This document shows, one piece after another, positions 5,048-52,679 of a stretch of 64,000 nucleotides of DNA (position 1 is its first letter; every line of letters begins with the position of its first letter). Made by a program: the position numbers and the translations under genes. This DNA is from Minisyncoccota bacterium. Lineage in GTDB: Bacteria > Patescibacteriota > Minisyncoccia > Phycocordibacterales > WO2-35-19. The DNA lies in NCBI GenBank assembly GCA_041664625.1, contig JBAYKK010000004.1, positions 2,343 through 66,342 of the forward strand, read 5' to 3'. The notes under the pieces were generated by a model. It had not been told where the DNA came from. It ran no database searches and worked only from the letters and a program-made list of their open reading frames with translations.

Positions 5048-5048
5048 A

Positions 5049-5095
5049 ATAACTCACCCCAAACCCCTCTCTTACATTAAGAGAGGGGAAAAATA
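5049..5095 (+). terminator. Intrinsic terminator after infB; also a copy of a palindromic repeat element
   Basis: Palindrome cccctctcttacattaagagagggg followed by A/T-rich run; same 40-nt element occurs inverted at 47158-47197. Confidence 0.6.
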
Positions 5096-5487: not shown

Positions 5488-5559
5488 GGCCTGGTAGCCA
5501 AGTAGTAAGGCATTCCTCTGCAAAAGGAATATACGCGGGTGCAATTCCCACCCAGGCCT
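5488..5559 (+). tRNA. tRNA-Cys (GCA)
   Basis: Acceptor GGCCTGG/CCAGGCC; anticodon stem TTCCT/AGGAA with loop CTGCAAA; T-arm GGGTG-CAATTCC-CACCC; no encoded CCA. Confidence 0.7.
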
Positions 5560-5633
5560 CCGCGAAATTTTAAGGAGCAAAGTGACTATAAAATTTCAGC
5601 GCCCCGCCGAAGCTTTAGCGAAGGCGGACAAAA

Positions 5634-5716
5634 GCTCGGGTGGTGGAATGGTATACACGAAGGACTTAAAATCCTTTGGCCGCAAGGCCTTGCGAGTTCG
5701 AGTCTCGCCCCGAGCA
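5634..5716 (+). tRNA. tRNA-Leu (TAA), type II with long variable arm
   Basis: Acceptor GCTCGGG/CCCGAGC; anticodon loop CTTAAAA; variable arm GGCCGCAAGGCC; T-arm GCGAG-TTCGAGT-CTCGC. Confidence 0.8.
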
Positions 5717-5719
5717 CCG

Positions 5720-6478
5720 ATGAAATGGCTTAATAAAAAAATATTATTTCTTTTGGGTTATGTGATTTTGGCAGGGATAGTAGTTTTAATATTTAAACCC
5801 ACTTACCTTTTATCTATCATTTTAGTTTTAGTACCGCCTAGTATCGCAAACTTCTATTGGCTCAAAAAATCAAAACTCAAAGTTTTTGTTTTTGCTTTTA
5901 TAACTGGCGTAGTCATCGCTCCAGCCATCGAACTCTGTGCCAGACTCGCCAACGTCTGGGATGTGCAGTCTGTGATCTTAAGACCTTTTGGACTCATACC
6001 GATAGAAAACATGCTTTTTGCTTTCTTAAATTTCTTGTGGGTTTTGAGTTTTTATGAATATTTTGTAGATCGCGATTACAACAAAAAAATATCATGCAAA
6101 TTTAAAATACTAGTGACTATCTACGTCGTGGCCGCTATCGCTATTTATGCTTTATTTTTTATAAATAAAGCATTGGTAACTTTAAACTACATCACCATTT
6201 CTATACCACTTTTGGTTTTACCGGCTATTTTGATTTTTAGCAAAAAACCAGCTCTACTCAAAAAAGTCATTTTGCCAACCATATTTTTTGCTTTGATTTT
6301 TTTCTATTACGAAATAATCTCCCTCATCATCGGCAGTTGGTGGTGGCCAGGTGAATATATTTTCAACACCACCATTTTTGGCAAAGTTTTCCCACTTGAT
6401 GATGTCATCATCTGGTACCTCCTATCTACCCCAGTCCTTATCGGCGGTTATGAATTTTTCACTGACGATTGGCATTAA
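5720..6478 (+). CDS. Polytopic membrane protein, possibly lycopene-cyclase-domain family
   Basis: 252 aa from ATG at 5720 (the longer six-frame ORF from 5582 overlaps tRNA-Leu); ~7 TM helices; 'IPIEN'/'FPLDD' motifs. Confidence 0.4.
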
Positions 6479-6566
6479 AATTATTTAAATTAACAATTGA
6501 ATTTGATAGTTATTAACCATATTACAGTTTGGTTCTATTTCTATATAGGATATAATTGGTAGTACA

Positions 6567-7286
6567 ATGATAATTAACTCAATCCTAAAACAAAAATCAA
6601 GGGCTCTCAGGAAAAAAGGTTTTAGTTATGGAGAAATAGCGTCCAAAATAAAAATTTCAAAAAGCACAGTAAAATATTGGTGTACTGATATAATTCTTAA
6701 TCAAAAAGACCAAAAAAGACTTTACACTAAACAAATAAAGGCACTTTCAGGTGGGCCAAGAAGTAGCCACAATCGAAGACAAAAAGAAATAGAAAAAATT
6801 ACTAAAAATTCCGAAAAGGAAATATCCTTACCCATCAATTTAGATACATACAAACTTTTTGGTGCTGCCCTTTACTGGGCAGAAGGAAATAAGATCAGTG
6901 ATTTTACAATTACTAATTCCGATCCATTATTAATACAATTTATGTGTCAATGGTTTTGTAAAATATTTAATGTCACACCTAATGATCTAAAAGCTCATCT
7001 TAATATATATCCACAACAAAACGATTTAGAAATAAAAAAATTTTGGTCAAATATAACAGGAATACCATTAAATAGATTTGGGAAAACTTTTATCAAACCA
7101 GTGAGTAAAAATTACAAAAAAAATAATCTTTATTATGGAACAATTAAAGTCAGGGTTAGCAAAGGTACAGATTTTAGACATCGTGTATTTAGTTGGATTA
7201 ATGCAATATTAAAAAATAATAAAATTAATGTTGGAATTACTGAAAGAAAATGGTATAAATTAAAGGGTGACTATATGCGCCCATAG
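6567..7286 (+). CDS. HTH-containing protein with LAGLIDADG-like motif (possible homing-endonuclease-like)
   Basis: 239 aa; N-terminal resolvase-type HTH 'GFSYGEIASKIKISKSTVKYW'; 'LFGAALYWAEGNK' resembles LAGLIDADG; stop overlaps tRNA-Lys 5' end. Confidence 0.3.
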   Translation: MIINSILKQKSRALRKKGFSYGEIASKIKISKSTVKYWCTDIILNQKDQKRLYTKQIKALSGGPRSSHNRRQKEIEKITKNSEKEISLPINLDTYKLFGAALYWAEGNKISDFTITNSDPLLIQFMCQWFCKIFNVTPNDLKAHLNIYPQQNDLEIKKFWSNITGIPLNRFGKTFIKPVSKNYKKNNLYYGTIKVRVSKGTDFRHRVFSWINAILKNNKINVGITERKWYKLKGDYMRP

Positions 7287-7349
7287 CTCAGTCGGTAGAG
7301 CAGTCGCCTCTTAAGCGAACGGTCCTTGGTTCGAATCCAAGTGGGCGCA
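7277..7349 (+). tRNA. tRNA-Lys (CTT)
   Basis: Acceptor GCGCCCA/TGGGCGC; D-arm GCTC..GAGC; anticodon loop CTCTTAA; T-arm CTTGG-TTCGAAT-CCAAG. Confidence 0.8.
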
Positions 7350-7452
7350 CAAACCGACAACAGGAAGGTTTGTGCGAGTCGGAGCACGACGGTGCGAGCC
7401 GGGGTCGCGGAATTTTTTAGCAAAAAATTATCTGTGACCACTCGTAAAGTAT

Positions 7453-7533
7453 GCCGGGGTGGTGAAATGGTATACACGCCAGTTTTAGGAACTGGTGCCG
7501 CAAGGCATGGAGGTTCAAGTCCTCTCCCCGGCA
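7453..7533 (+). tRNA. tRNA-Leu (TAG), type II
   Basis: Acceptor GCCGGGG/CCCCGGC; anticodon stem CCAGT/ACTGG loop TTTAGGA; variable arm TGCCGCAAGGCA; T-loop TTCAAGT. Confidence 0.8.
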
Positions 7534-7536
7534 CAA
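7515..7536 (+). repeat. attL-like: tRNA-Leu(TAG) 3' end, duplicated at 31241-31264
   Basis: 'tcaag-tcctctccccggcacaa' here vs 'tcaagattcctctccccggcacaa' at 31241-31264 (17-nt exact core + 5 nt). Confidence 0.55.
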
Positions 7537-7595
7537 CGCAGTGAGACCGACCGAGACCGCCCAACAGAGCGACATTTCGGTCGAGTCAAGTTTGA

Positions 7596-7625
7596 GACGG
7601 GTTCAGGAATGGAACCTTGTTTTTT
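7596..7625 (+). terminator. Intrinsic terminator downstream of tRNA-Leu
   Basis: gggttc-aggaatg-gaacc hairpin followed by TTGTTTTTT. Confidence 0.55.
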
Positions 7626-7663
7626 ATGATTGACTTTTCATTTAACTGGCTCATAATGCATTC

Positions 7664-8260
7664 ATGAATGAATATGGTTTTCAAACTCAGCCCAAGGAAA
7701 AACACAATGTTTTTGTGAGTTTTCATAATAAAGATCAATATTATAGAGATCAATTTGATACTCTGTTCGGGCATCTATTCAATAGCAGATCTGTTGACGT
7801 AGGAGATATAGACCCCGAGAATGAAGACGAGTATATAAAAAAACTAATCCAAGAGAAGCACATAGAACCCTCAAGTGTCGTCTTTGCTTTGTATGGCAAA
7901 GAAACTCACCAACGCAAGCATGTTGATTGGGAAGTTTCTGCGGCTCTAAATAAAAAAGTGGGAGGCCATAAAGGTCTCGTAATTATGTTGATTCCAGGTT
8001 TCCCCATTGCTCCGTATAATGCGTTTAACCAATATGACGAAAGTGTAATATTCCCATATCTACACCCTCGCACTGCTGCAAATCTTAAAAGTGGTTATGC
8101 TGATCTTTACTATTGGCCAGGCCTCTTTACAAATTTTCCCGGAGTTCAAACATTCCCAATGGAAGATATTATCAAGAAAGCTTTCCTCAAGAGAGATAGC
8201 CACGAGCATTTGATTGATAATGGCGATATCCAATATAAAAGAAATCTATCATGGAACTAG
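7664..8260 (+). CDS. TIR-like domain protein (ThsB/DUF1863-type)
   Basis: 198 aa; 'NVFVSFHNKDQ' N-terminal TIR strand motif, 'SSVVFALYGKETHQRKHVDWEVSAAL' matches ThsB-type TIR core (cf. ThsB 'VFFSFHYQD', 'VTCVLIGSQTFNRRWVRYEI'). Confidence 0.6.
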   Translation: MNEYGFQTQPKEKHNVFVSFHNKDQYYRDQFDTLFGHLFNSRSVDVGDIDPENEDEYIKKLIQEKHIEPSSVVFALYGKETHQRKHVDWEVSAALNKKVGGHKGLVIMLIPGFPIAPYNAFNQYDESVIFPYLHPRTAANLKSGYADLYYWPGLFTNFPGVQTFPMEDIIKKAFLKRDSHEHLIDNGDIQYKRNLSWN

Positions 8261-8943
8261 CGAGTACAACTCTAATTAATTTATTTTCCGTATCTCTAAA
8301 TAAGTATCATTTACTATTTGATGTGAACCCTTGGTTAGTAGTAGGGGTGGTTTTATTAGCGCTACTTTTTATATTTGTTCGATGGCGTTTCGGGAAAATG
8401 CGTGGCCCTAATTTTGAAATTGATGCAGCTGAGATGGGAATCGGCCCTGGTAAAATTTCCTTCAAGCCAAATCTCAAAGATCAGGAAATCGCCTACAAAA
8501 TCTGGGTTGAGTTGAGTACAAGAAAGATTGGCCTTGATATTGATCTAAAACATGATGTCATTGCTGAAGTCTACGATTCATGGCACAGCTTCTTCTTGAT
8601 AACTCGAGAATTGATAAAAGATATTCCAGTAAATAAGGTGAAGAATAAAAGCACAAGAGAGATTATTGCTCTGTCTATTAATGTGCTTAACAAGGGTCTC
8701 CGCCCTCACCTCACAACTTGGCAGGCACGCTTCAGGCATTGGTATGAAAGACAGATTGAAAAGAAAGAGGATAGTGATATCGATCCGCAATTTATTCAAG
8801 CAAAGTATCCGCAATTTGAAGAGTTAAAAACTGATTTATTAGAGGTAAACAAGAGGCTTATTGCTTATAGAAAAAAGATGCATGAACTTGTCCTTGGTAA
8901 ATCAAAAGATGGAGAGGAGTTGTCAGAAAAAATTGTCTCCTAA
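8251..8943 (+). CDS. Membrane-anchored protein of unknown fold, translationally coupled to the TIR gene
   Basis: 230 aa; start overlaps TIR stop by 10 nt; one N-terminal TM helix (PWLVVGVVLLALLFIFV), ~180-aa soluble C-terminal domain with no family assignable by eye. Confidence 0.45.
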   Translation: MELASTTLINLFSVSLNKYHLLFDVNPWLVVGVVLLALLFIFVRWRFGKMRGPNFEIDAAEMGIGPGKISFKPNLKDQEIAYKIWVELSTRKIGLDIDLKHDVIAEVYDSWHSFFLITRELIKDIPVNKVKNKSTREIIALSINVLNKGLRPHLTTWQARFRHWYERQIEKKEDSDIDPQFIQAKYPQFEELKTDLLEVNKRLIAYRKKMHELVLGKSKDGEELSEKIVS

Positions 8944-10259
8944 ATTATCTTTACCTCCCTCCCACTCACTTGAATCCTGCTCTTGAGGCAATCCAGTAGC
9001 TCTCTTTTCTCCCACATAGTACCCTCTTGGAGAAGATACTTGGCATAGTTACGAATATCTATATCGACTACCTTTATTTTCTCCACTTTTTGTCCAAGAA
9101 GACTGGATTGGAATTTTTTATATCGCCCTACTTCAACTTTAATCTTTTCCTTCATTCCAATCTCGTCCAGATCAATTTTGTCCATTAGTTTGGAGAATTG
9201 CTGAATTAAATCTTTCTCTTCTATATATTTCGCCTTGCAGTGCTTATTCTTGGATCTGGAGCATCCATAGTATATGTATTTGTGAACATTGCCATTTTGC
9301 TGATGCTTATATTTTTCGCAAGCGGTTATGCCAGAACCGCACAAGGAGCAAGTCATGAGTTTGGTAAAAGCGTACTCTTTACCGTAATCTTTCATCACAT
9401 GCTCCGAAATATTTTCCTGGGTTTTGTCGAAAAGCTCTTTGGTGATAATTGGCTCATGCTTGCCTTGATACCATTTACCGCTTCCTGCCGGATATTCAAA
9501 TGTACCGTAGTAGAAGTGGCAGCGAAGTGTTAAGTATATGTTACCGAGAGCCAAAAATTTGTTGTTTTTAGTTTTAAACTTGATCTCATCTTTTAGCCAT
9601 TTATGCACTCGTCTGCCAGACCAGTTTTCATAAGCCACTTTTTCAAACATTTTCCTGACTATAGGTGCTCTGTAATGATCAACTTTAACCTGACATTTCT
9701 CATCTTTATTTTTGCTGTTTAGGTATCCAACTGGAGCCGGAGCTGGCCAAAGTCCCATCTCGCATCTAGCTCTCAAACCTCTTTTAACATTTTCAACCTT
9801 GTTGTCATTCTCGAGTTTGGCCTGACTTCCTAAAATCATGAGAAGAAATTTCTCGTTAGGATTGTTTGTAAATTTCTGACCTCCATTGGTTCGGATTTCT
9901 CTGAGTAATCCTTGATCCATTAGGTCCACGATTCTGCCAAGGTCTCCGGCATTTCTTGAAATCCTGTCCGGTGCCCAAGTTAAAATTCCGTCAAATTTTC
10001 CTTGTTTTATTTCCTCCACAATCTCGTTAAAAACAGGTCTCTGTCCCGCTTCTTTAGCAGAATGAGATTCTCTCTTTGTAACCACGATATCCAAACCATT
10101 TTCAGCTGCCATTCTTTCCATTTCTTTAACTTGGCTTTCTATGCTCAAAATTTGTTTATCCTCTTCCTCGGTGCTTTTACGAGAATATAAACAATATTTG
10201 ATCTTTGTTGGGACTACCACTTTCGTTTGAGTTCCCAAAGGACTTTGCGTTGTTTGCAT
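8940..10259 (-). CDS. Large serine recombinase (resolvase/invertase N-domain + recombinase + zinc ribbon)
   Basis: Catalytic 'YCLYSRKSTEEED...SIESQ' resolvase motif, recombinase domain, C-terminal Cys-rich ribbon; start at M10 supported by AAGGAA RBS (six-frame ORF extends to 10286). Confidence 0.85.
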   Translation of the reverse strand: MQTTQSPLGTQTKVVVPTKIKYCLYSRKSTEEEDKQILSIESQVKEMERMAAENGLDIVVTKRESHSAKEAGQRPVFNEIVEEIKQGKFDGILTWAPDRISRNAGDLGRIVDLMDQGLLREIRTNGGQKFTNNPNEKFLLMILGSQAKLENDNKVENVKRGLRARCEMGLWPAPAPVGYLNSKNKDEKCQVKVDHYRAPIVRKMFEKVAYENWSGRRVHKWLKDEIKFKTKNNKFLALGNIYLTLRCHFYYGTFEYPAGSGKWYQGKHEPIITKELFDKTQENISEHVMKDYGKEYAFTKLMTCSLCGSGITACEKYKHQQNGNVHKYIYYGCSRSKNKHCKAKYIEEKDLIQQFSKLMDKIDLDEIGMKEKIKVEVGRYKKFQSSLLGQKVEKIKVVDIDIRNYAKYLLQEGTMWEKRELLDCLKSRIQVSGREVKII

Positions 10260-10397
10260 ATTCCTTAAATTAGCTTGTATACCCAAGGAATGACGCTAAT
10301 CTCTATAAGAGTCTAGAGCATCTCGAGTTGGTAAGGTGTTTATACTCGCTCTTCAAAATGCTTTAAAATTGTGGCTTAAAGTGATAGTATTTCAATA

Positions 10398-13300
10398 ATG
10401 GAAATTGACCAAGATACATCTAAAAAAGTATTGGTTTTTATAAAAGAAAATCCTGGCAGTAAGGCACGGAAGATTTCATCTGTTCTTGATTTGGATAAAA
10501 AGGAAGTCAATAAATTACTCTATGGACCCCTCAAAGGCCAATGTAGACAAGATTCTGCGTACAACTGGTATCTAAAAGAAGATCTAAAAACAGAAGCGAT
10601 TACATCTATCAAACAAACGGTAAATACGCCTTTAGCTAGGCTATGCAATTATTATTCATCCTGTATTGCTGAGGATACCGGAGCAAAAGTTAGAGTGTTT
10701 GCTCAAAGTAAGTATGGGTTGGATTACAAGGAACTGGAAACAATTCCATCTTCTGAAGATACAAGCGAAATTTTTGAGTCATCAGAAGTACAAAATTTTT
10801 TAAATGAATCCCGAAAAGATAAATCCCAAATGTTATATTTTGGATATCCAGTATTAATGTCCCATGCACGTTCTAGCAAATCAGATTGGGAAGGATATTT
10901 TGTCAGTCCAATATTTCTATTTCCGATAAAAGTTGAAAACGACGGAGTAAATCTGGATCTAAATTTTCCGACTATAAATCGAGAAGTCTTGGAGCGATAT
11001 ACAGATGCAAAAGGCGAGGAGTTGATGAAAGAACTTGTTACCCTAGAAGAGGAACTCGGTATTTCAGGAGAAGGAGAACAACCTGAACTAGATGAGTTGA
11101 TTCAACGACTAAAGGTTTTACGTCCTGAATGGCAATGGGTTGAAGATCCTGATCCATACAACCTCGTGAAAGACCCTCCATTACGGGAATGTACTTCGGA
11201 AGGAATTTTTAATCGTGCAGTTGTAGTTAAAGTTCAGGAAGCTCCAAATAATTTTACGCAAGGTCTAGAATACGAATTAAGTCAATTGGCAAGGTTGTCT
11301 GAAAATGACTACAAAGACACAGCGTTGGGTCAATGGATATATAGAAATATCGGAGACGCAGGCGAGAAAAATTTAAACTCTTTGCTTGAGGTGTTCCCTA
11401 TGAATCTAGAGCAACGCGAAGCTGTTCAGAATGCACTAGTAAATGATCTGACCATTATTACCGGACCACCAGGTACCGGAAAATCACAAGTAGTTACTAA
11501 CTTACTTATCAATGCCGCTTGGCAAAAAAAGCGAGTGTTATTTGCAAGTAAAAATAACAAAGCTGTTGATGTAGTTGAAAGTCGTGTGAATAATATCGGA
11601 ACACGTCCAATTCTTTTACGTCTTGGTGGCAAGGGTGATTATCAAGATCAATTAGTTTCCCATCTTTCAAACTTGCTTGCTACAACCGTGGATCAGCAAG
11701 ATGAGCGGGAATTTGCAGAACGAAAACAAGAATTTGAAGATGTGCATGCCGAGCTGTTAAATATTGACTCGCAAATTAATGATTTAGTAATTCTTAGGAA
11801 TAAAGTCGATGAATTAGATAGAGATATTAATGATGCCAGAAATGATCTATCAGAGGATATTTTTGCTCTTATAAAAAATAAAAGATTTTTAAGTGTTAAA
11901 CCTGAAATTGAAATTTTGCTTAATAAATTAGAGTATGCGCTAAAGCCCAAAATTTCGTTTTTTGAAAAAATTGGAGAATTTCTTTTTGGTAGCAAAATAA
12001 GTAACGATATTATTGCAAGAACTACAGAGTTACAAGGTACTCTATCTGAACTTGATATTAGTATTCCAACACAGCCATTAAATAAGTACTCGCAGCAAGT
12101 TTGGGTTGTATTTAAAGATGAGTTACAGCATCGCTGGAATCAAACAGAGCGAGTAAGAAAATATTTTTATTCTCTAGAAGAACTGCAAAAATCTGATTCG
12201 TTGGAGACATTAACTAAACAAAGACTGAATCTTTTAAATAGGATGTCCGATAAATCTTCAGTACTTTGGAAGTTGTGGCTCAAGTTGCAAATTGGGCGAT
12301 TGTCACACGATGACAGATCTCTCCTTAGCCAATATAGATCTACTTTGCAAATGGCCTCTGGCTCTAATCCTACACAAAGTGTCTGGAGAAATTACTATAG
12401 CCAATCACAAAAAATTTCTCATATTCTATCCACTTGGGCTGTAACGTCACTATCAGCAAAAGGTAGAATTCCGCTTAGTAAAAATATATTTGATCTGGTA
12501 GTTTTCGACGAATCAAGCCAGTGTGATATTGCTTCTGCACTCCCACTTCTATATAGGGCAAAGCAAGCTGTAGTTATTGGAGATCCTAAACAGCTGTCTC
12601 ATATTAGTTCAATCTCTAAAAAACAAGACGAGCGTCTTTTGGAAAAATATGGTTTATTAGATACCCATAGCGATTGGGCATATTCATATAATTCTCTATT
12701 TGATCTTGCGGCTGGTCTTTCGCGCGGTACTGGTATTATTGATTTACGAGATCACTATAGGTCTCATGCAGATATTATTAATTTTTCAAATCAATTCTTT
12801 TATAAAGGCCGCCTTAGAATCGCAACTCGATACGATTCACTTAAACGGCCAAAGGACGAAAATGCAGGTATTAGGTGGATAAATGTCGAAGGTCGTGCAG
12901 AAAAAGCACCACTGGGTAGTGGATCACAAAATAAACAAGAAGCTGAGGTGGTAGTTACAGAGCTACGAAGACTTTTTGAGCAAGGATATAAAGGAACTAT
13001 TGGTGTTGTTAGTCCATTTAGGGCACAAGCCAATTTGATACGTAAATTAATCAACGAGGATAGTGAACTCCTTGGATGGTTATCTACATGCGAATTTATA
13101 AGTGAGACTGTTCATAAATTCCAAGGGGATGAGCGAGATATCATTATATTTTCACCTGTCATTTCTAAAGGCATGCCTAATGGTTCAACGCTATTTCTAC
13201 AGAAAACGGGGAACCTGTTTAATGTGGCTATTACTCGCGCGCGAGCAATGTTAATCGTTATTGGCGACCACGAAGCCGTACTTCACTCTGATATTTTGTA

Positions 13301-13727
13301 CATGGAAAAGTTTGCCCAACACGTCAATGAAATTGGTAAACAAAAAGAATATAAAATAATACAAAGTACCAGTCTCGGTCCAGAGTATCCGACAGTTAAA
13401 AATCCAGAGTTAGTTTCAGATTGGGAACATATTTTTTATAAAGCTTTATACGATGCTGGGATATGTCCAATTCCTCAGTATCAGGAAGAAATGTATATTC
13501 TAGATTTTGCAATTTTTGACGGAGACAAAAAACTTAATATAGAAATAGACGGAGAACATTATCATAAAGATTGGACTGGAGAATTATGCTACAGAGATCA
13601 AATGAGAAACCAGAGAATGTATGAATTGGGTTGGGATGTGATGAGATTCTGGGTGTATGAAGTCAGGGATGATCTAGACGGTTGTATCAAAAAAATTAAT
13701 GATTGGATAAGTCCAAGTAATAAGTAA
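10398..13727 (+). CDS. Superfamily-1 (Upf1/DNA2-like, AAA_11/AAA_12) helicase fused to C-terminal DUF559 (Vsr-like) endonuclease; N-terminal winged-helix-like region
   Basis: 1109 aa; Walker A 'GPPGTGKS', 'VVFDESSQ', 'VHKFQGDERD', motif VI 'VAITRAR'; C-terminus 'LDFAIFDGDKKLNIEIDGEHYH...GWDVMRFW' = DUF559. Confidence 0.8.
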   Translation: MEIDQDTSKKVLVFIKENPGSKARKISSVLDLDKKEVNKLLYGPLKGQCRQDSAYNWYLKEDLKTEAITSIKQTVNTPLARLCNYYSSCIAEDTGAKVRVFAQSKYGLDYKELETIPSSEDTSEIFESSEVQNFLNESRKDKSQMLYFGYPVLMSHARSSKSDWEGYFVSPIFLFPIKVENDGVNLDLNFPTINREVLERYTDAKGEELMKELVTLEEELGISGEGEQPELDELIQRLKVLRPEWQWVEDPDPYNLVKDPPLRECTSEGIFNRAVVVKVQEAPNNFTQGLEYELSQLARLSENDYKDTALGQWIYRNIGDAGEKNLNSLLEVFPMNLEQREAVQNALVNDLTIITGPPGTGKSQVVTNLLINAAWQKKRVLFASKNNKAVDVVESRVNNIGTRPILLRLGGKGDYQDQLVSHLSNLLATTVDQQDEREFAERKQEFEDVHAELLNIDSQINDLVILRNKVDELDRDINDARNDLSEDIFALIKNKRFLSVKPEIEILLNKLEYALKPKISFFEKIGEFLFGSKISNDIIARTTELQGTLSELDISIPTQPLNKYSQQVWVVFKDELQHRWNQTERVRKYFYSLEELQKSDSLETLTKQRLNLLNRMSDKSSVLWKLWLKLQIGRLSHDDRSLLSQYRSTLQMASGSNPTQSVWRNYYSQSQKISHILSTWAVTSLSAKGRIPLSKNIFDLVVFDESSQCDIASALPLLYRAKQAVVIGDPKQLSHISSISKKQDERLLEKYGLLDTHSDWAYSYNSLFDLAAGLSRGTGIIDLRDHYRSHADIINFSNQFFYKGRLRIATRYDSLKRPKDENAGIRWINVEGRAEKAPLGSGSQNKQEAEVVVTELRRLFEQGYKGTIGVVSPFRAQANLIRKLINEDSELLGWLSTCEFISETVHKFQGDERDIIIFSPVISKGMPNGSTLFLQKTGNLFNVAITRARAMLIVIGDHEAVLHSDILYMEKFAQHVNEIGKQKEYKIIQSTSLGPEYPTVKNPELVSDWEHIFYKALYDAGICPIPQYQEEMYILDFAIFDGDKKLNIEIDGEHYHKDWTGELCYRDQMRNQRMYELGWDVMRFWVYEVRDDLDGCIKKINDWISPSNK

Positions 13728-13778
13728 TCAAACACTAAATAAAAATATATTATTTAGAATTTTTATTTAAAAAAATTT

Positions 13779-14579
13779 ATGTTCATACCAAAAAAAATTC
13801 TTTGTGCTGTCGGCGGGGTTGTAGTGTTAGTCGCTGTTTTCTTAATTGGGGTCTCGTCTGGAAATAAAAGTGAAAATTTAATATCAGAACAAACTGCGAC
13901 AGTGGTAGATTCAGATACGGCTAATACCAGTATTACTCCCAAATCTGGTGAGTTGGTCAAAGTGGTCAGAGTAGTAGATGGCGATACCATTAATGTTGAA
14001 ATAAATGGCAAAGTAGAGCCGGTGCGATATATAGGTATTGATACTCCAGAGACAGTTGATCCACGCAAGCCGGTACAATGCTTCGGAGTTGAAGCGTCAA
14101 AGAAAAATAAAGAATTAGTGGATGGTAAAATGGTGAGATTGGAAACTGATATCACTGATCGCGATAAATACAATCGACTACTTCGTTATGTTTGGCTTGA
14201 TGACAAGCTAATAAATCAGGCGTTAGTAGAACAAGGTTACGCTAAGTCATACTCATACCCTCCAGATATTAAATACCAAGATAAATTTGTGGTAGCCGAA
14301 AAACAGGCCAGAGAAAATAAACTGGGTCTTTGGACCGCTTGTGCTTCAGAAACAACTACGACGACAGTTCCAACTCCAACACAAACATCTTCATCTACTT
14401 CCGATCCTTCCTGTACCATTAAGGGTAATATAAGTTCGTCAGGAGAGAAGATTTATCACATGCAAGGTTGTGGTTCGTATTCAAAAGCCACCATAGATGA
14501 AAGTCGTGGTGAAAAATGGTTTTGTACAGAAACAGAGGCCCAATCTGCAGGTTGGAGAAAAGCTTTAAATTGTAATTAA
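13779..14579 (+). CDS. Secreted/membrane-anchored thermonuclease (SNase-like) with Cys-containing C-terminal domain; paralog of 54154-54954
   Basis: 266 aa; N-terminal TM; SNase motifs 'VVDGDTINV', 'RYIGIDTPE', 'NRLLRYVWLD', 'KLGLW'; ~88% nt identity to second copy. Confidence 0.8.
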   Translation: MFIPKKILCAVGGVVVLVAVFLIGVSSGNKSENLISEQTATVVDSDTANTSITPKSGELVKVVRVVDGDTINVEINGKVEPVRYIGIDTPETVDPRKPVQCFGVEASKKNKELVDGKMVRLETDITDRDKYNRLLRYVWLDDKLINQALVEQGYAKSYSYPPDIKYQDKFVVAEKQARENKLGLWTACASETTTTTVPTPTQTSSSTSDPSCTIKGNISSSGEKIYHMQGCGSYSKATIDESRGEKWFCTETEAQSAGWRKALNCN

Positions 14580-14587
14580 AATATAAA

Positions 14588-15577
14588 ATGGATCAAGAAA
14601 ACAATAAAAACAAAAAACGTCTTTGGGCTACGATTACAGGTATTGTCATTACCATATTAGCCGCATTCTTGTATTTAATATTTTTTCAAACAGCTGAATC
14701 ACAAGCAGAACCGGAGAGGTTTGTAATGCCTCTAAAATCGGATCAAACTGCTTTCGGTTTACTAAAATCTCAAGAATTTATAAAAAATAATTTTGGTTTT
14801 GGGATAGCAAGCTTGCTAAGAGGCCTGGGAGGTGTTGATCCTGGTGGTTACAAAATTTCCAAATCAATGACCGCGTGGCAAATTGCTGGAATTTTGAATC
14901 AGGAACCGTATATGAAATGGGTGGTGATACCGGAGGGATTAAGAAAAGAAGAAATTGCTGATTTGCTTACCACTACTCTCGGTTGGTCAGAAAAAGAAAA
15001 GAGTGATTGGATAAACACTTACACTGCTATGGATTTTGATCACACAGAGGGTGTATATTTCCCCGACACTTACCTCATTCCGGTAGACGAATCTCCGCTT
15101 GATGTAGCTAAAAGATTAAGAGCGAAGTTTGAAGAAAAATTCGCTCCGTATGCAAAAGAAGCGCTAGCCGAAGATATTAAATGGACGACCCTTATAAAAC
15201 TTGCTTCTATCATTCAACGAGAGGCAAACGGACATGACGATATGCCACTAATAGCAGGTATTCTATGGAATAGATTGCTCAAAAATATGAAGCTTGAGGT
15301 TGATGCCACCTTGCAGTATGCAAGGGGTGACAAAGGAGATGGTTGGTGGGCGCCAATTACACCTGCCGAAAAACAAATCGACTCACCTTACAACACTTAC
15401 AAGAACACCGGCTTGCCGTTTCATCCAATCTCCAATCCCGGTCTTTCCGCGATAGAAGCAGCCCTGCATCCTACCTCCACGAATTGTTTATATTATCTCC
15501 ACGACAGTTCCGGAGAAATCCATTGTTCAGATACGTTTGAGGGCCACAAGCAAAATATTACTAATTATTTAAAATAA
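14588..15577 (+). CDS. mltG: MltG/YceG-like endolytic murein transglycosylase; paralog of 54963-55952
   Basis: 329 aa; N-terminal TM; 'YNTYKNTGLPFHPISNPGLSAIEAALHP...LYYLHD' YceG-type motifs. Confidence 0.7.
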   Translation: MDQENNKNKKRLWATITGIVITILAAFLYLIFFQTAESQAEPERFVMPLKSDQTAFGLLKSQEFIKNNFGFGIASLLRGLGGVDPGGYKISKSMTAWQIAGILNQEPYMKWVVIPEGLRKEEIADLLTTTLGWSEKEKSDWINTYTAMDFDHTEGVYFPDTYLIPVDESPLDVAKRLRAKFEEKFAPYAKEALAEDIKWTTLIKLASIIQREANGHDDMPLIAGILWNRLLKNMKLEVDATLQYARGDKGDGWWAPITPAEKQIDSPYNTYKNTGLPFHPISNPGLSAIEAALHPTSTNCLYYLHDSSGEIHCSDTFEGHKQNITNYLK

Positions 15578-15581
15578 AAAT

Positions 15582-15737
15582 ATGAAAAAACCGAAATTCA
15601 TAAATCTTACAGTATTTATAATCTTTTTTGGAACAGCGCTTTTTGGAGCATTTCAGAAACAAAATTGGATAGAGGTAACACTCTATTTGGCTTTGGGCGT
15701 TCTGTTTCTTTGGGCAGATAGCCAAAGAAAAACTTGA
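15582..15737 (+). CDS. Small hydrophobic protein (51 aa)
   Basis: Two predicted TM segments; located between mltG paralog and acidic peptide gene. Confidence 0.25.
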   Translation: MKKPKFINLTVFIIFFGTALFGAFQKQNWIEVTLYLALGVLFLWADSQRKT

Positions 15738-15861
15738 AATAGTTCTTGGGGTTTCTTATCATGCTCGCAATTATATTCTATTTCGGATATAAGAAAGGCG
15801 AAAAACCGCGTTGGCAGTGGGGACCGTCTAAAGATAAGAAATAAACATAACAATATAAAAT

Positions 15862-16005
15862 ATGGACTCTGATGAAATTTTAGAGCTGGTAAAAGAAGGT
15901 ATTATTGAACCAGACCAGGTCGAGGATTTTGAAAACCTTGACCCCGAAATTCAAGAATTGGTAGCCAATAGCGATTTAGATATAGATGAAGCTTTGGGTT
16001 TGTAG
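15862..16005 (+). CDS. Small, highly acidic protein (47 aa)
   Basis: MDSDEILELVKEGIIEPDQVEDFENLDPEIQELVANSDLDIDEALGL; paralogous copy at 61652-61796 is interrupted by a stop codon. Confidence 0.4.
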   Translation: MDSDEILELVKEGIIEPDQVEDFENLDPEIQELVANSDLDIDEALGL

Positions 16006-16279
16006 CAAAAAACTCCCGTCTCCGGAAGTTCTTTGCGGGAATAGCAAGCTACTTTGAAGGGAGAAAAGATTTCGTCGCTTGTCTCACACTTTGTTCGCTT
16101 CCCGACTCTCAATTATGCTCCTGTTATGCTCAGCCGAGCTCTTGGTACATCCGTAAACCAGTCCGTTGCTTTTTACCGCACCCTCTGTCTTTAGACAAAT
16201 CCACCGCACAAGGCGAATGACGGTCTTATTACAACCCCCGTTCCAAGCTAAGCTTGAAAATACCAATTCTCGCTATTCC
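16005..16279 (-). ncRNA. Unclassified structured ncRNA (~275 nt), copy 1; not RNase P, not tmRNA
   Basis: Reverse-strand -10 box (TAGAAT at 16286-16291), TSS ~16279; 5'/3' closing helix GGAAUAGCGAG/CUUGCUAUUCC; terminator hairpin UCCCG...CGGGA + U6 at 16005-16040; ~95% identical copy at 61320-61595. Confidence 0.55.
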
Positions 16280-16297
16280 GCTGTAATTCTATCAAAT

Positions 16298-16930
16298 TCA
16301 TTGCCATGGCACCACTTTCAGCATGGGCCAGATATGGATCCATTTTTCTACTTTCTTCATGTATATGTCCTCGGTTATTTTCTTTTTGTTTGGTCTAACC
16401 ACTAATTGCATTAGATCGTTTAATCTATAAGGAGCGTAAATTTTAAGTTCGTCATTCTCCAATCTAACTCCTACGGCAGTAGCAGTGGTTGGGTATTGAG
16501 ATATTGCATCTTCGATTGAAAGAAACGGGTCAATCGGAAATCCAAAATGCTTTTCATACCACAAATGGACCCTGGCTTGATTTCGTATTTCAATAGAAAT
16601 ATCTCCGAATATTTTCTTGCTTTTCTTTATGAACTTATCCTCCGCCTCATATGAAAGGTCAGAGTCGTCAAAATACACTAAATCATAATCGCCAATTCCA
16701 TAATTCAAATCGTATCTATGTTTATGGTTCCAAATCGTCTGAGCCAAGCAACCAGCCGTCAAATACCAGTTTTTCATTTCCAAAGAAGGCGCTCTATAAA
16801 GTATCTCTTTTATTACCTCATTTTGGAGCAAAATTTCCTTGAAATATTCCATTGACCAGAATATATCAGTTTGGGAGTGGGTAGACAAGAATCCAGCCAT
16901 TGGTAATTTTTTCATACTTGCATACCACAT
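16298..16930 (-). CDS. Putative nucleotidyltransferase-family protein
   Basis: 210 aa; 'GIGDYDLVYFDDSDL' resembles the Gly/Asp-rich NTase-fold active site; weak assignment. Confidence 0.3.
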   Translation of the reverse strand: MWYASMKKLPMAGFLSTHSQTDIFWSMEYFKEILLQNEVIKEILYRAPSLEMKNWYLTAGCLAQTIWNHKHRYDLNYGIGDYDLVYFDDSDLSYEAEDKFIKKSKKIFGDISIEIRNQARVHLWYEKHFGFPIDPFLSIEDAISQYPTTATAVGVRLENDELKIYAPYRLNDLMQLVVRPNKKKITEDIYMKKVEKWIHIWPMLKVVPWQ

Positions 16931-17253
16931 AAGTCATTGTTTTATATTTCTGATTTTGATATTCTGATATGGACAATTGAATAAGAATGGCCTAAACCAG
17001 TGCTAAAACATTGGCATGGCAAAAAGTCCTTGGAAGATAAAGAACCCATCATGGGGTCGTCTTCCAAGGCCATATCGGGAAACCGGTATGAGAGGCTTCG
17101 ATCCTCTATCCGTGGTGGGCTTTTTGTTGTTCAGATTATTAAAATATGGGAAACTTACAAAGTAAAAGAATTTGATTAATATGTACACTCTCTTTGACAA
17201 TTTCAAAGAATAATGTATTATTAAATTATTCAATAATCATTAGCATTATTACC

Positions 17254-20115
17254 ATGAAAAAGTTTAGTTTGTTTTTCTCGATTTGCCTTAGTATCTTTAT
17301 GGTATTTGGCAGTTTTAGTATTCCAACTCTAGCTTACGAAAACAAGAGTGTTAATCTTGAGCAGGTCAAGACAGAAACCACACTTAACAATGATGCAAAT
17401 ACTCTTAATAAAATAAATTTAATATCTAGACCAGCCAACGATTTCTCACAAAATCTATTAGTGACCCAAAAAGGAAAAACTGGATTGGAAAAATCTCAAC
17501 AAATAGAAGTAAAAACCAAAGATTATGTAGACGGAGAAATTTTGGTCAAGTATAAAAATAATAAAATAAATCTACAAACTATTTCAGGCAAAGCAGCCGC
17601 TCTAAATTTTATTAATTCTAAATCGTTAGAGAAAAAAGAAGATTTGATAAAAAATAATATTTCAGTTTTGAGAATTAAAGATACAAAGACAGTAGAACAG
17701 AAGATAGCCGAATTGAAAAATGATCCAAATGTAGAATATGTTGAGCCCAATTATAGGCGTTATCCAGCGGTAATAAATACAAATGATACAAACAAAAGTA
17801 TTCTCTGGGGGTTAGATAATACGGGACAAACGATCAATGGAAGTTATGGAAATATTACAGGTACCAATGATGCCGACATTGACGCCCCTGAGGCCTGGGC
17901 GATAAGTGGGGCAACAACTTCTGTCCCAGTTATAGTAGCCGTGATAGACAGTGGCGTAGCCTATAACCATCCTGATTTAGTCGCAAATATGTGGGATGGA
18001 TCAAATTGTAAAGATGAAAATGGTAATGCTTTAGGTGGTTGCAATTATGGGTATGATTATGAAGATAATGACAAAACTCCACTTCCATCTTTTTCTTCTC
18101 ACGGAACTCATATTGCCGGAACAATAGCTGCGGCAATAAATAATGGCAAGGGTATAATCGGGGTGGCCCCAAATGCCAAAATAATGGCAATCAAATATGG
18201 TTTTAATGTTGCTTCAGAAATAAAGTCCATTGATTTTGCTATTCAAAATGGGGCGAAAGTAATCAATGCCAGTTTTGATGGTACCGAGTTTTCACAATCA
18301 GAATATGATGCTATTAACCGTTTTAAAACTGCGGGAGGAATTTTAATTGCTGCTGCTGGTAACGAGTCGACTAATAATGAAAGCGTTCATCTTTATCCTT
18401 CGGATTACAATTTGGATAATATTATTTCAACTGCGGCTACAGACCAAAATGATGCTTTGGCCACCTTTTCTAATTATGGAATAACATCTGTTGATGTTGG
18501 TGCTCCTGGAACAAATATTTATAGTACTGTTCCTTCGGAAACGGCTGTAGTATCTGAAAGTTTTGAAAGTCTAACACCACCAAATATTCCTAGTGGTTGG
18601 ATTAAAGGTGGAGCCAATAATAATTGGGGAACATATTCGCTAGATAGTGGCACTTTTTGGGGTAAAGTATTGTACGGAGATCTTGCATACCCATACGCTG
18701 ATAACAGAAATACTACTATTACATCTCCAGTATATAATTTAAGTATCGGGGGGGCCAATATCGATTTTTGGACTAAATGTGATACGGAATATATCACTGA
18801 TGGCTGGGCTGATTATATGCAATTAGAATATAGTGCTGATGGAGTTAATTTTTCTCCAGCGGTTGACCCGTTCTTTGGGGGAGAGTTTAGATGGGATGAA
18901 CCAACTCTCGATATTCTGAATGAGGAAAATCCTCTGAATAGTGCTAATGGGGCGTTATTTCATTATTCAAACATATCAATACCGGCTCAATATTTAACCA
19001 GTAATTTCAAGTTCCGTTTTCGCTGGGTGACTAATGCTTCAAATAATAATTATGACGGTTGTCTTGTTGATGATGTAAAAATTACTAAATTTAGTGATGG
19101 TTCTGATGAAAAATATGATTATAGTGACGGTACTTCAATGGCTACACCACATGTCGCCGGTCTCACCGCATTAGTTGAAGGATATAATCCTGGCCTTTCA
19201 CTAATACAGGTGAAAAATATTATATTAACAATGGGTGATAGTTTATCATCTTTATCTGGTAAAACAGTTTCTGGCAAAAGAATAAATGTGCAAAAAACGC
19301 TACAAGCTGCTAATCCTGCAAAAGCTATTACCGCATTTAGTTTTGCAACCCCAGTAGCCACTGGTGTTATTGATGAAATTACCCACACAATTACATTAAC
19401 CGTTCCATTTGGAACCGATGTTACTGCTCTTATTCCAACTATTGCAACTTCTACCGGATCGTCAGTTAGCCCAGCTAGTGGTGTGGTTAACAATTTTACA
19501 GCTACATCAACTTATACAGTCACGGCTGCTGATGGGTCCACTCAAGCTTATGCTGTGGCAGTAACTGTTGCACCTGCCGCAAGTCATACAATTTCTGGAA
19601 TAATAAAATATTATGACGGGATAAAAGTAATTCCAAATGCTACTGTGATTTTAGAAAATAGTATTGGCACCCAAATAGCCACTACTACAACAAATACAAG
19701 TGGAGCTTATCAATTTACAGAAGTTGCGAATGGGGGTAATTATGTTGTTAGAGTTTCCAAAGATGACAATTTTTCTTCTACCGGAGTTACTGTCTCAGAT
19801 TTGATAGTTATTAAAAAACATACCCTAGGAACGGAATTGACGGATATTTATGAAAAAATTGCTGCTGATTTTAATTCTAGTCAATCAATAACAGTATCCG
19901 ATTTAATAATGCTTAAAAAATTTACCTTAGAACGAATAGACGGGAGACCTGCTTCTTCTTGGAGATTTTATTCATCTAATGTTACGCCAGATGCAACAAA
20001 TTATTTGACCGTTGGCCAGACTAGAACTTACAGTAATTTAACGGCCAATACTCCCAACCAAGATTTTGTTGGTATAAAAATGGGAGATGTAAATAATTCG
20101 TGGGTTAGCAATTAA
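17254..20115 (+). CDS. Secreted subtilisin-like (S8) serine protease with C-terminal Ig-like and other domains
   Basis: Signal peptide; catalytic triad motifs 'VIDSGVAYNHPDL' (D), 'HGTHIAGTIAA' (H), 'GTSMATPHVAG' (S); C-terminal repeat shared with the next gene. Confidence 0.85.
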   Translation: MKKFSLFFSICLSIFMVFGSFSIPTLAYENKSVNLEQVKTETTLNNDANTLNKINLISRPANDFSQNLLVTQKGKTGLEKSQQIEVKTKDYVDGEILVKYKNNKINLQTISGKAAALNFINSKSLEKKEDLIKNNISVLRIKDTKTVEQKIAELKNDPNVEYVEPNYRRYPAVINTNDTNKSILWGLDNTGQTINGSYGNITGTNDADIDAPEAWAISGATTSVPVIVAVIDSGVAYNHPDLVANMWDGSNCKDENGNALGGCNYGYDYEDNDKTPLPSFSSHGTHIAGTIAAAINNGKGIIGVAPNAKIMAIKYGFNVASEIKSIDFAIQNGAKVINASFDGTEFSQSEYDAINRFKTAGGILIAAAGNESTNNESVHLYPSDYNLDNIISTAATDQNDALATFSNYGITSVDVGAPGTNIYSTVPSETAVVSESFESLTPPNIPSGWIKGGANNNWGTYSLDSGTFWGKVLYGDLAYPYADNRNTTITSPVYNLSIGGANIDFWTKCDTEYITDGWADYMQLEYSADGVNFSPAVDPFFGGEFRWDEPTLDILNEENPLNSANGALFHYSNISIPAQYLTSNFKFRFRWVTNASNNNYDGCLVDDVKITKFSDGSDEKYDYSDGTSMATPHVAGLTALVEGYNPGLSLIQVKNIILTMGDSLSSLSGKTVSGKRINVQKTLQAANPAKAITAFSFATPVATGVIDEITHTITLTVPFGTDVTALIPTIATSTGSSVSPASGVVNNFTATSTYTVTAADGSTQAYAVAVTVAPAASHTISGIIKYYDGIKVIPNATVILENSIGTQIATTTTNTSGAYQFTEVANGGNYVVRVSKDDNFSSTGVTVSDLIVIKKHTLGTELTDIYEKIAADFNSSQSITVSDLIMLKKFTLERIDGRPASSWRFYSSNVTPDATNYLTVGQTRTYSNLTANTPNQDFVGIKMGDVNNSWVSN

Positions 20116-20145
20116 AAAATTAATAATAATTAGTATAAAAATAAT

Positions 20146-25083: not shown

Positions 25084-25255
25084 GCCTTTAATAATGCCAC
25101 AATGTCTCCAATTATCCAGATGTTGGTAACTCCTCTTCGCAACCTTCTATATCTAAGCTAAGATACCCAACGATAGCAAAAAGTGCTATCATAACTTTGA
25201 CAACTTAATAGCAAGAGGAAGCCTAAACCATCCAGTCGATGGCATGGCATCCGAA

Positions 25256-25391
25256 GCAAGAACAACGCACGACACAAGAAAACCCGTTATTAGGGCGTGT
25301 CGTGCGTTACCAGGGGAAACTCTGGTAGAGGTTACCGCAAGGTACCTTCCTAGTAGCGGGCTTTGTTGTTCTTGTTTTAATCGCACGACAA
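25256..25391 (+). promoter_or_regulatory. Structured 5' leader (riboswitch-like) with alternative pairing that can sequester the translation-start region of 25392-26048
   Basis: CGCACGACA occurs at 25267-25275 and again at 25382-25390 (abutting the ATG); complementary GUGUCGUGCG at 25297-25306; enclosing helix CAAGAACAAC/GUUGUUCUUG; internal hairpins with GNRA-type loops (GCAA; GGGAAAC). Confidence 0.3.
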
Positions 25392-27559: not shown

Positions 27560-27995
27560 TATTAATTTCTTCTAATACTGCAGTCGGCTCCTCTTCTGGA
27601 GGAGATTCCTGTGGATTTTGCGGGGCAAGAGAAGCCAGACGAAGAGCTTCTCTCACTGTTGCTTCTTGCTCTGGAGTCAGAGCGTCTTCTTTATCAAGGT
27701 GAGCCGTAATATCAATGCGATTTTTATAAGTCGCATGATTGTTTCGAAGCCAGAACATAATTCCGGACATGTTGCCTTCCTTAATGGCAGAGATGAGCTG
27801 AGATTCAGCTAGATCATTTACCAGAAGCGAGCCGTCACGCAGAGCCTCATCCGCCTTGTCCACAAACTCCTTGTCCTCCTTTCGCCAGAAGTAATATGTG
27901 GATCGACCAATGCCTAGCTTTTGGCAAGCGGTTTCCACGATGGGAGTTTTCTTTAACTGCTCTAAAAGCAATTCTTTGTTTGCATTAGTTTTCAT
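27525..27995 (-). CDS. HTH protein, putative terminase small subunit
   Basis: 156 aa; HTH 'VETACQKLGIGRSTYYFWRK'; directly upstream of and overlapping TerL; acidic C-terminus. Confidence 0.45.
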   Translation of the reverse strand: MKTNANKELLLEQLKKTPIVETACQKLGIGRSTYYFWRKEDKEFVDKADEALRDGSLLVNDLAESQLISAIKEGNMSGIMFWLRNNHATYKNRIDITAHLDKEDALTPEQEATVREALRLASLAPQNPQESPPEEEPTAVLEEINNVNQNNHEENK

Positions 27996-31775: not shown

Positions 31776-31806
31776 TTAAATATCTTAGCTTGCATTTTTT
31801 TCTATA

Positions 31807-51478: not shown

Positions 51479-51479
51479 C

Positions 51480-52646: not shown

Positions 52647-52679
52647 GAAGCCATACTAATCGGAAAAATAAATATTAAA

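Follow-up and report, generated by a model that had tools for sequence, protein, structure and literature searches.

Large serine recombinases (LSRs) that insert site-specifically beside a conserved host gene are familiar from SCCmec-type cassettes, with their CcrAB proteins, and from the phage integrases phiC31 and Bxb1. Hotspots of defence genes have been described in temperate phages and satellites of the P2/P4 type (PMC9122126) and, as core chromosomal sites, in Escherichia coli (PMC10121019) and Pseudomonas aeruginosa (PMC10250203). Islands targeted to tRNA genes, as treated in the Islander/TIGER work, are usually made by tyrosine integrases and carry a displaced tRNA fragment at the far end (PMC4383910). 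In Patescibacteria, genomic islands with restriction-modification (RM) systems have been reported (PMC12455944). Here we analyse two loci on a 64,000-nt stretch of contig JBAYKK010000004.1 from a Minisyncoccota bacterium (the window, to which all coordinates refer). At each of them a tRNA gene, an LSR gene, defence genes, a thermonuclease gene (SNase), mltG and a structured non-coding RNA (ncRNA) follow one another. A first-pass annotation had taken this arrangement for a defence hotspot on a mobile backbone. Our analysis makes it moderately probable that the window instead holds two separate tRNA-anchored integrase islands on a Paceibacterota chromosome, each beside an old paralogous block of host genes and without a mobile backbone shared between them.

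The observed gene content of the two loci is listed below; locus 1 carries copy 1 of the paralogous genes and locus 2 carries copy 2. Comparison loci, most of them short metagenomic contigs, bear the prefix L; open reading frames are abbreviated ORF, transmembrane TM.

Locus 1:
7277-7534: tRNA-Lys and tRNA-Leu(tag), the left edge of the locus
7453-7534, plus strand: tRNA-Leu(tag), the anchor of island 1 (ARAGORN and Rfam)
7535-7616: end module of the LSR element, about 80 nt, near-palindromic, with a T-arm-like hairpin (homology to the segment from LSR stop to tRNA in L126, L127, L044 and L046)
7664-8260, plus strand: ThsB-like TIR protein, cargo on the tRNA side of LSR1 (Pfam ThsB_TIR, 2.9e-14; PADLOC ThsB, 9.4e-10)
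8251-8943, plus strand: 230-aa protein with an N-terminal TM segment (no Pfam, PADLOC or PHROG match)
8940-10259, minus strand: LSR1, a large serine recombinase of the phage integrase type (Resolvase, Recombinase and Zn_ribbon_recom; phrog_95 integrase, 3.9e-59)
10260-10397, minus strand: leader of LSR1 with the family motif CTAGACTC...GCGTCATTCCTT (alignments)
10398-13727, plus strand: Upf1-like superfamily 1 helicase fused to a DUF559/MTES_1575 nuclease, island 1 cargo (Pfam AAA_11, AAA_12 and MTES_1575; PADLOC MkoC, 1e-70, PDC-S37 and Hhe)
13779-14579, plus strand: SNase copy 1, a membrane-anchored thermonuclease (Pfam SNase)
14588-15577, plus strand: MltG/YceG copy 1 (Pfam YceG, 3e-63)
15863-16006, plus strand: 47-aa acidic ORF, with a pseudogene duplicate at 61650-61794 on the other side of the RNA
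16003-16297, minus strand: structured ncRNA copy 1, about 275 nt, 3' of the nucleotidyltransferase gene, with its own promoter and terminator
16298-16930, minus strand: NTP_transf_6 (PF06042) nucleotidyltransferase (NTase), the neighbour of the RNA (Pfam, 5e-53)

Locus 2, to the left of which lie uvrC, uvrA, uvrB and tRNA-Ser:
48706-48778, plus strand: tRNA-Glu(ttc), the anchor of island 2 (ARAGORN and Rfam)
48779-48895: diverged end module between tRNA-Glu and LSR2 (alignment A5)
48896-50197, minus strand: LSR2, a large serine recombinase (Resolvase, Recombinase and Zn_ribbon_recom)
50318-53399, plus strand: island 2 cargo, namely an EcoRI-like methylase, a DUF262/GmrSD_N-HNH restriction enzyme and a 239-aa coiled-coil membrane protein with four TM segments (Pfam; PADLOC MTase_II, 2e-104, and REase_II, 3e-81)
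53454-55952, plus strand: DUF2726, SNase copy 2 and MltG copy 2, a chromosomal block (orthology with L140)
55956-61300, plus strand: five genes (181 aa, DKNYY, 598 aa, PG_binding_1 protein, 196 aa) between MltG2 and the second RNA, absent from copy 1
61318-61612, minus strand: structured ncRNA copy 2 (93.6% identical to copy 1)

In gene order, strands and domains the first-pass annotation was accurate apart from its omissions. The tRNA that it placed ahead of LSR1 is present as tRNA-Leu, with the TIR and 230-aa genes intervening; MltG and RNA do follow each other in locus 2, at a distance of 5.4 kb and five genes, against 0.4 kb in copy 1; and the order of acidic mini-ORF and RNA is swapped between the copies. 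Comparison of the window with itself returned only four shared blocks:

LSR core, within both LSR genes: 69% over 666 nt
SNase-MltG, 13758-15588 and 54131-55962: 85.0% over 1833 nt
RNA, 16003-16297 and 61318-61612: 93.6% over 295 nt
Acidic mini-ORF, 15860-16004 and 61650-61794: 79%

This self-comparison confirmed the paralogous blocks and found their co-linearity broken between MltG and RNA. The nucleotide identity of about 88% given earlier for the SNase-MltG pair is that of SNase alone (88.0%); MltG alone reaches 82.5%, and the pair 85.0%. The ncRNA proposed for both loci is real; it is encoded on the minus strand and, besides its high identity, has a -10 box and a terminator. What could not be upheld is the assertion that only the cargo differs: homology is confined to a few blocks, and the LSRs are far more diverged than SNase and MltG.

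Such unequal divergence bears directly on the model in which tRNA, LSR, cargo, SNase, MltG and ncRNA together form one mobile element family, present in two copies at different tRNAs. The recombinases are paralogous, as had been claimed, and both are intact, with 59% amino acid identity over 420 residues. The SNase proteins are 91% identical and the MltG proteins 88%, and the RNAs share 94% of their nucleotides, so that the parts of the supposed element have not diverged equally. Furthermore, LSR1 has relatives of 84-88% identity in unrelated contexts. LSR1 is nearer to the LSRs of other genomes than to its paralogue LSR2, which implies one history for the LSRs and another for SNase-MltG.

Two surveys addressed the co-linearity of the backbone elsewhere. 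The first covered 72 LSR loci, made up of 5 contexts of close LSR1 relatives and 67 loci from IMG/VR (a scan with the LSR1 protein alone gave 1 locus, and an alignment-based scan recovered the family); the second covered 40 SNase loci from GTDB species representatives (L001-L040). Neither MltG nor the RNA occurs in any of the 72 LSR loci, and the three SNase homologues found there (50-55% identity) all lie outside the slot between LSR and the terminase gene terL. None of the 40 SNase loci contains a family LSR, and only one has an adjacent MltG (L018, 57%). SNase orthologues with 80-83% amino acid identity in L072, L114 and L138 are likewise without a family LSR. The single-element model can point to the same order and orientation of all six features in both loci, to a methylase and GmrSD pair upstream of SNase in L024 and L031, and to a distant SNase in L127 that lies 9 kb from an LSR 84% identical to LSR1. 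It can also point to SNase homologues of 75-81% identity in distant lineages of the Candidate Phyla Radiation (CPR). These have no synteny or shared neighbours, and for about one in three the end of the contig is no more than 1 kb away; the scatter suggests horizontal transfer or repeat-induced assembly breaks. Against these points stand the empty surveys, the unequal divergence, the lost co-linearity from MltG to RNA, the agreement of MltG with the species tree, and the presence of the block in L138 and L140 with other restriction systems and no family LSR. We therefore regard a single mobile element as very unlikely. The backbone genes are not co-linear in other genomes, and SNase and MltG are unlinked to recombinases there, which is the outcome that the first-pass annotation itself had named as decisive against its model. 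What stands of its hotspot is a variable defence slot beside the recombinase; LSR, SNase, MltG and ncRNA are not one mobile backbone. For annotation the lesson is that paralogous host genes beside two independent islands can give the false appearance of a mobile backbone.

The relatives of SNase and MltG disclose what the duplicated block is. The host belongs to the Patescibacteria (CPR), since all SNase relatives come from metagenome-assembled genomes (MAGs) of this group; the nearest named relatives by UvrB and MltG are Zambryskibacteria, and the source lineage is Candidatus Paceibacterota. Identity of MltG to its relatives declines smoothly (85, 82, 81, 79 and 76%), compared with 85-81% for UvrB, and the relatives include a Zambryskibacteria MAG whose UvrB is 82% identical. 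As MltG diverges at about the rate of UvrB, it appears to be the ordinary, vertically inherited mltG of this lineage. In L138 a type III RM system is followed by SNase (79%) and MltG (81%) and then by acidic ORFs and an S49 peptidase gene, the downstream genes also seen in L028 and L114; no family LSR or tRNA was found within 10 kb. L140 is orthologous to copy 2 (DUF2726 93%, MltG 90% and DKNYY 84% amino acid identity), with the order DpnII RM, DUF2726, SNase scar, MltG, DKNYY. Homology to L140 begins at 53412, and the DpnII system occupies the place that LSR2 and the type II RM system occupy in the window. At the scar (L140 3250-3275 against window 54144-54954) the whole SNase gene has been cleanly deleted, and the last ~10 nt of its ORF (TTGTAATTAA) are left between DUF2726 and MltG. 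L135-137 combine a type I-like RM system with MltG and have no LSR in the sequence available; all of these Zambryskibacteria MltG contigs end 70-410 nt after MltG.

The same relatives date the duplication. MltG2 shares 90% of its residues with L140 and 88% with MltG1, and L138 is equidistant from both copies; among identical residues, 60% of codons are identical between MltG1 and MltG2, and 65% between MltG2 and L140. Because MltG2 is closer to L140 and L138 is equidistant, the duplication would fall after the split of the L138 lineage and before that of L140. Judged by these identities it is old, and an old duplication of mltG in a streamlined genome is rare.

The LSRs belong to a family of their own, whose architecture and distribution we observed across the 72 loci. 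Both window proteins are full length with all three domains of large serine recombinases (PF00239, PF07508 and PF13408), and the catalytic serine motif YCLY.RKST is invariant in 18 family members (Y22...S29 in alignment A9). The family is very abundant, with roughly 8000 members, and conservation is high: identity is 66% or more throughout the top 120 database clusters, and the mean column identity of A9 is 78%. The five contexts of close LSR1 relatives (73-88%) lie beside genes for ribosomal proteins, IF-2/RbfA, pseudouridine synthase, DsbA and NUDIX proteins. In the usual layout of the family, a ParB-methylase and a methylase are followed by the small and large terminase subunits (TerS, TerL) and a variable slot; then come the LSR, optionally a second and smaller slot, the end module of ~80 nt and, on the opposite strand, a tRNA. 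In 45 of the 72 loci the LSR has TerL upstream of it and on its own strand, 57 nt to 9.3 kb away. The genes that precede the LSR there have homologues in the window, which form a module at 26045-29996 (Pfam; PHROG):

28725-29996, minus strand: ParB_N-methylase
27992-28765, minus strand: methylase
27525-27995, minus strand: TerS-like protein
26045-27559, minus strand: TerL (phrog_38, 1.4e-74)

With TerL and a TerS-like protein the module has packaging genes as expected of a phage or satellite. It stands 15.8 kb from LSR1 on the same strand; close relatives of LSR1 usually have no TerL. A tblastn search for an LSR remnant near the window module found none, and a Sie-like OB-fold gene lies alongside (25392-26048), as in L141 and L167, with no adjacent integrase. 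Most ORFs in the gap between TerL and LSR point away from the LSR. The families that predominate among them are ResIII, N6_N4/N6 methylases, type I/III RM, Eco57I-type methylases, reverse transcriptases (RT/DRT), PIF1-like helicases, KAP NTPases and ThsB_TIR.

The IMG/VR loci (L141-L207) present the five-gene unit of ParB-methylase, methylase, TerS, TerL and LSR of ~440 aa as widespread, with defence genes between TerL and LSR. At window 30-34 kb and beside the LSR in L165 and L183, no PHROG structural match to head, portal or tail genes was obtained except for one weak head-closure match, and PHROGs may miss proteins of CPR phages. Because no head or portal genes are seen beside it, the unit may represent a satellite-like element and not a complete phage. 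Six IMG/VR contigs hold two family LSRs 17-21 kb apart, so tandem or compound elements exist.

The leader motif CTAGACTC...GCGTCATTCCTT, which had been noted as conserved between the two recombinases, proved to be a feature of the family at large: it occurs in 32 of the 72 LSR loci, compared with 0.3% of background windows. Judged by its sequence, the TTCCTT of the leader can pair with an AAGGAA ribosome-binding site.

At the other end of the LSR gene, the junction with the tRNA is equally characteristic. All 17 tRNAs within 3 kb downstream of an LSR are on the opposite strand, at distances of 96 nt to 2.9 kb, a range that leaves room for the second small slot. A module of ~80 nt abuts the 3' end of different tRNAs, namely Leu-tag, Leu-taa, Leu-gag and Val-tac; its copies lie at window 7535-7616, L126 5861-5943, L044 7829-7889 and L046 7833-7893. 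It is close to a palindrome (GAGACCGACCGA, 22 nt, TCGGTCGAGTC), with a T-arm-like hairpin at its end; its sequence suggests an entire recombination site, or else a tRNA-like remnant, and not just one half-site. A search of both strands of the window with 22-mers, allowing up to 5 mismatches, found no second copy in direct or inverted orientation and no repeat of the tRNA end. Both islands are anchored in this manner: the module abuts tRNA-Leu on the side of LSR1, and tRNA-Glu lies 117 nt from the stop codon of LSR2, as tRNA-Glu(ttc) also adjoins the LSR2-like locus L162. The position of the module at 7535-7616 places the TIR and 230-aa genes inside island 1, between module and LSR1. To the left of island 1, window 5488-7534 (IF-2, RbfA, tRNA-Cys and tRNA-Leu(taa)) shares its synteny with L045, in which the same tRNA-Leu(taa) adjoins an LSR with 76% identity to LSR1; several tRNA clusters of the lineage hence serve as LSR landing sites. 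Window 5.7-7.3 kb, which encodes a helix-turn-helix protein, may be an island remnant.

Island 1 (~7535-13757) thus has cargo on both sides of its recombinase, the ThsB-like TIR protein and a membrane protein towards the tRNA and the helicase-nuclease away from it. The cargo of island 2 (~48779-53411) is a type II RM pair with a membrane protein. By its domain matches the pair is assigned to type II, with an EcoRI_methylase (5e-122; MTase_II, 2e-104) beside the GmrSD_N and HNH protein (REase_II, 3e-81). A Thoeris system was not identified in island 1: the TIR protein is ThsB-like, and no ThsA, Pfam or PADLOC match was obtained for the 230-aa protein next to it, which may be a partner of the TIR protein. 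We also considered whether DUF2726 and the C-terminus of the helicase are duplicated homologues, and discarded the idea; the similarity is weak and spans 50 residues (E 2e-4), which fits a shared nuclease fold and no more.

In the mechanism that we propose, the LSR would insert its element at the 3' end of a tRNA gene, and the slots beside it would collect and exchange anti-phage genes. Islands 1 and 2 would then be the integrase-proximal parts of elements of the LSR family, each with its own defence payload. SNase and MltG, with DUF2726 in one copy, and the RNA would be ordinary host genes that were duplicated before the split from L140 and subsequently rearranged and partly lost. The DNA upstream of SNase/MltG and around the RNA would take up unrelated restriction and defence genes by way of other integrases or of none. 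LSR activity, the attachment (att) sites and the direction of events are here inferred from sequence.

A different route leads through the packaging module. A phage or satellite-like element could have acquired a copy of the host segment from SNase-MltG to ncRNA in its LSR-TerL slot, for instance by imprecise excision or recombination; this copy would then have been carried to, or retained at, a second site. Copy 1 indeed has LSR1 on one side and, on the other, a complete packaging module of the same strand, with the Sie-like OB-fold gene beside TerL as in L141 and L167, and several IMG/VR contigs have two family LSRs at 17-21 kb. Moreover, according to a published survey, Patescibacteria depend 'almost exclusively' on horizontal gene transfer (HGT) and genomic islands, and not on duplication (PMC12455944); this reliance on HGT makes a duplication mediated by an element attractive. 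Against such a capture, the interval in question measures 15.8 kb and houses a subtilase, giant surface proteins and the NTase-ncRNA pair. The latter keeps its synteny in five other metagenomic loci, whose available sequence contains neither LSR nor TerL. In GC content, 10-26 kb (0.34-0.43) resembles the host and 26-35 kb lies higher (0.42-0.48), and close LSR1 relatives usually lack TerL. Finally, L138, a relative from before the duplication, has SNase-MltG in a context of the copy 1 type with acidic ORFs and an S49 peptidase gene, as does L028. We judge host-DNA capture to be unlikely. Its generalization is more doubtful still: LSR/terminase elements would take host chromosome (mltG, a surface nuclease, a structured RNA) into their defence slot and thereby create segmental duplications in streamlined genomes, and the RNA, often with the PF06042 NTase, would mark or help to specify the hotspot.

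Several points weigh against two independent islands beside host paralogues. Both old copies lie on the cargo side of an LSR island and in the same orientation, a striking coincidence of which our model offers no account. Copy 1 is formally within the interval from LSR1 to TerL (10.3-26.0 kb), the cargo slot in relatives, because the only packaging module of the window sits upstream of LSR1 on the same strand. On the short contigs that make up most of the comparison, the surveys would overlook any LSR or TerL at distances beyond 5-10 kb. The far ends of both islands are set only by homology breaks (13758 and 53412), with no att site. A search for an empty site of island 2 by way of UvrB relatives found none; relatives at 81-82% have PGI-ROK upstream of uvrB and no tRNA, so the locus is rearranged there and the search is uninformative.

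A trivial explanation would be that the two copies stem from two strains or species and were fused into a chimeric contig. Related contigs do end inside or just after SNase or MltG (L041, L001-L003 and L135-137), as repeats or strain mixtures would cause. Yet the copies are 15% diverged, too distant for collapse or cross-over by an assembler, and both are contiguous in two independent assemblies: the ENA contig (ERZ27249449) covers LSR1 to MltG2, and the JGI contig (3300037810) covers the TIR gene to the methylase of island 2. The identical layout in independent assemblies shows that the arrangement is no assembly artefact, and we consider a chimera extremely improbable. The LSR2 locus is also present in three other contigs; an exact search of IMG/VR with the right end of the window gave no match.

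The second lead of this analysis is a chromosomal defence hotspot anchored on SNase/MltG and the new structured RNA. The conserved flanking genes are accompanied by different defence systems in related genomes. Upstream of SNase/MltG we found type III RM (L138 and L030), DpnII (L140), type I-like RM with DUF87 and DUF4268 (L135-137), a TIR protein (L072), and in the window the helicase-nuclease at copy 1 and the type II RM system at copy 2. The RNA is flanked by AlwI RM (L113), type III RM (L082 and L114/L030) and the TIR protein (L072). In 26-28 GTDB SNase loci, the commonest families within 6 kb upstream are Eco57I, GmrSD_N, DUF2726, ResIII, AAA_15/21 and Fic, whereas downstream they are housekeeping families (tRNA synthetase, GTPases, RecA, NusA and IF-2). 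Other integrases also occur at the hotspot, namely a tyrosine integrase in L030 and a 545-aa LSR with a primase in L082. We thus distinguish two kinds of hotspot, a chromosomal one upstream of SNase/MltG and around the RNA, and an element-borne one beside the LSR.

The RNA of ~275 nt is preceded by a TATAAT-like box and followed by an intrinsic terminator. Against shuffled controls, the z-score of its fold is -2.1 for the minus strand and -0.1 for the plus strand, and compensatory changes affect 11 base pairs, compared with 2.3 ± 1.3 in shuffles and 0-1 in slid controls. Eight metagenomic homologues were found, most of them ~95% identical and two 77-82%; between species with ~80% protein identity, the RNA retains ~95%. 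In addition to the two window copies, RNA loci are L028, L072, L082, L088, L094, L113, L114, L123 and L124. There was no Rfam match at the gathering threshold, and none overlapping 16003-16297 at E <= 10. RNase P, tmRNA, SRP and 6S RNA were rejected by eye, as their conserved motifs are absent and Rfam is silent. Directly upstream of the RNA, a PF06042 NTase gene is found in L028, L088, L094, L113 and L114, the five loci already mentioned under the capture model. The arrangement of RNA and NUDIX gene in copy 2 recurs in L123, a homologue of the 598-aa protein lies near the RNA in L072, and DKNYY follows MltG in L140. We had suspected that L030 and L028 were halves of one gene split by assembly; they have no nucleotide overlap, and L114 later revealed the joined arrangement.

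Further features of the window lie outside the two islands. Two LOOT RNA matches (Rfam RF03000; 78.8 and 50.1 bits) at 16989-17107 and 25220-25346, both on the plus strand, bracket a block of subtilase, giant surface protein and CAP genes, and a LOOT-like sequence is also found near SNase in L005. Within 19390-22418 a coding repeat of ~62 nt occurs five times, at 61-79% identity to the reference copy; at the protein level they are the DUF5018/Ig-like domain repeats of two giant surface proteins, 973 aa and 1206 aa long, and one of the two also contains a PG_binding_1 domain. The region at 26-35 kb has a GC content of 0.42-0.48, compared with ~0.38 elsewhere, and its proteins at 30-34 kb belong to no Pfam or PHROG family. 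A promoter-like sequence (TGTGATATAAT) is duplicated upstream of two ORFs there (31795-31845 and 33122-33172), and a coding segment of 84 nt is duplicated in neighbouring small ORFs on the minus strand (34945-35028 and 35410-35493); the duplications between 31795 and 35493 suggest local paralogous gene pairs in this GC-rich region. An inverted match of 46 nt (95.7%) links 5043-5088, in the region of the IF-2/rbfA junction, with 47158-47202 inside uvrB.

In the literature searched we found no paper describing the LSR/terminase family, the SNase/MltG hotspot or the RNA. An abundant LSR family with a fixed defence slot and tRNA targeting is a practical marker for mining the defence systems of Patescibacteria. 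With SCCmec, phiC31 and Bxb1 it shares the three-domain LSR, a presumed site-specific insertion beside a conserved host gene, and the variable cargo; it differs in its short LSR (~440 aa) and its several different target tRNAs, and no recombination directionality factor or att site was identified in the window family.

The closest counterpart of the element-borne hotspot is that of P2/P4, which, in the account consulted (PMC9122126), likewise has a mobile core with a fixed position at which anti-phage systems are swapped. The equivalent position here is the interval from TerL to LSR, 57 nt to 9.3 kb long, with RM systems, DRT-like reverse transcriptases and TIR proteins. In contrast to P2/P4, the host belongs to the Patescibacteria and the integrase is a large serine recombinase instead of a tyrosine integrase. 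The core as observed to date comprises only ParB-methylase, methylase, TerS, TerL and LSR, with no head or portal genes found nearby, and the window LSRs are separated from the packaging module. With tRNA-targeted islands (Islander/TIGER), as outlined in PMC4383910, the loci have in common the integrase at the island edge by the 3' end of a tRNA and the tRNA-like junction sequence carried by the element. They differ in the serine recombinase, and no repeat of tRNA end or module was found.

The chromosomal hotspot resembles those of E. coli and P. aeruginosa, as these are described in PMC10121019 and PMC10250203, in its conserved flanks (here SNase/MltG and ncRNA-NTase) with differing defence systems, and in the tRNA genes and integrases nearby. 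Unlike them, its anchor is duplicated in one streamlined genome, one flank is an unclassified RNA, and it is known from metagenomic fragments instead of a pangenome. Nothing here overturns current ideas on defence islands.

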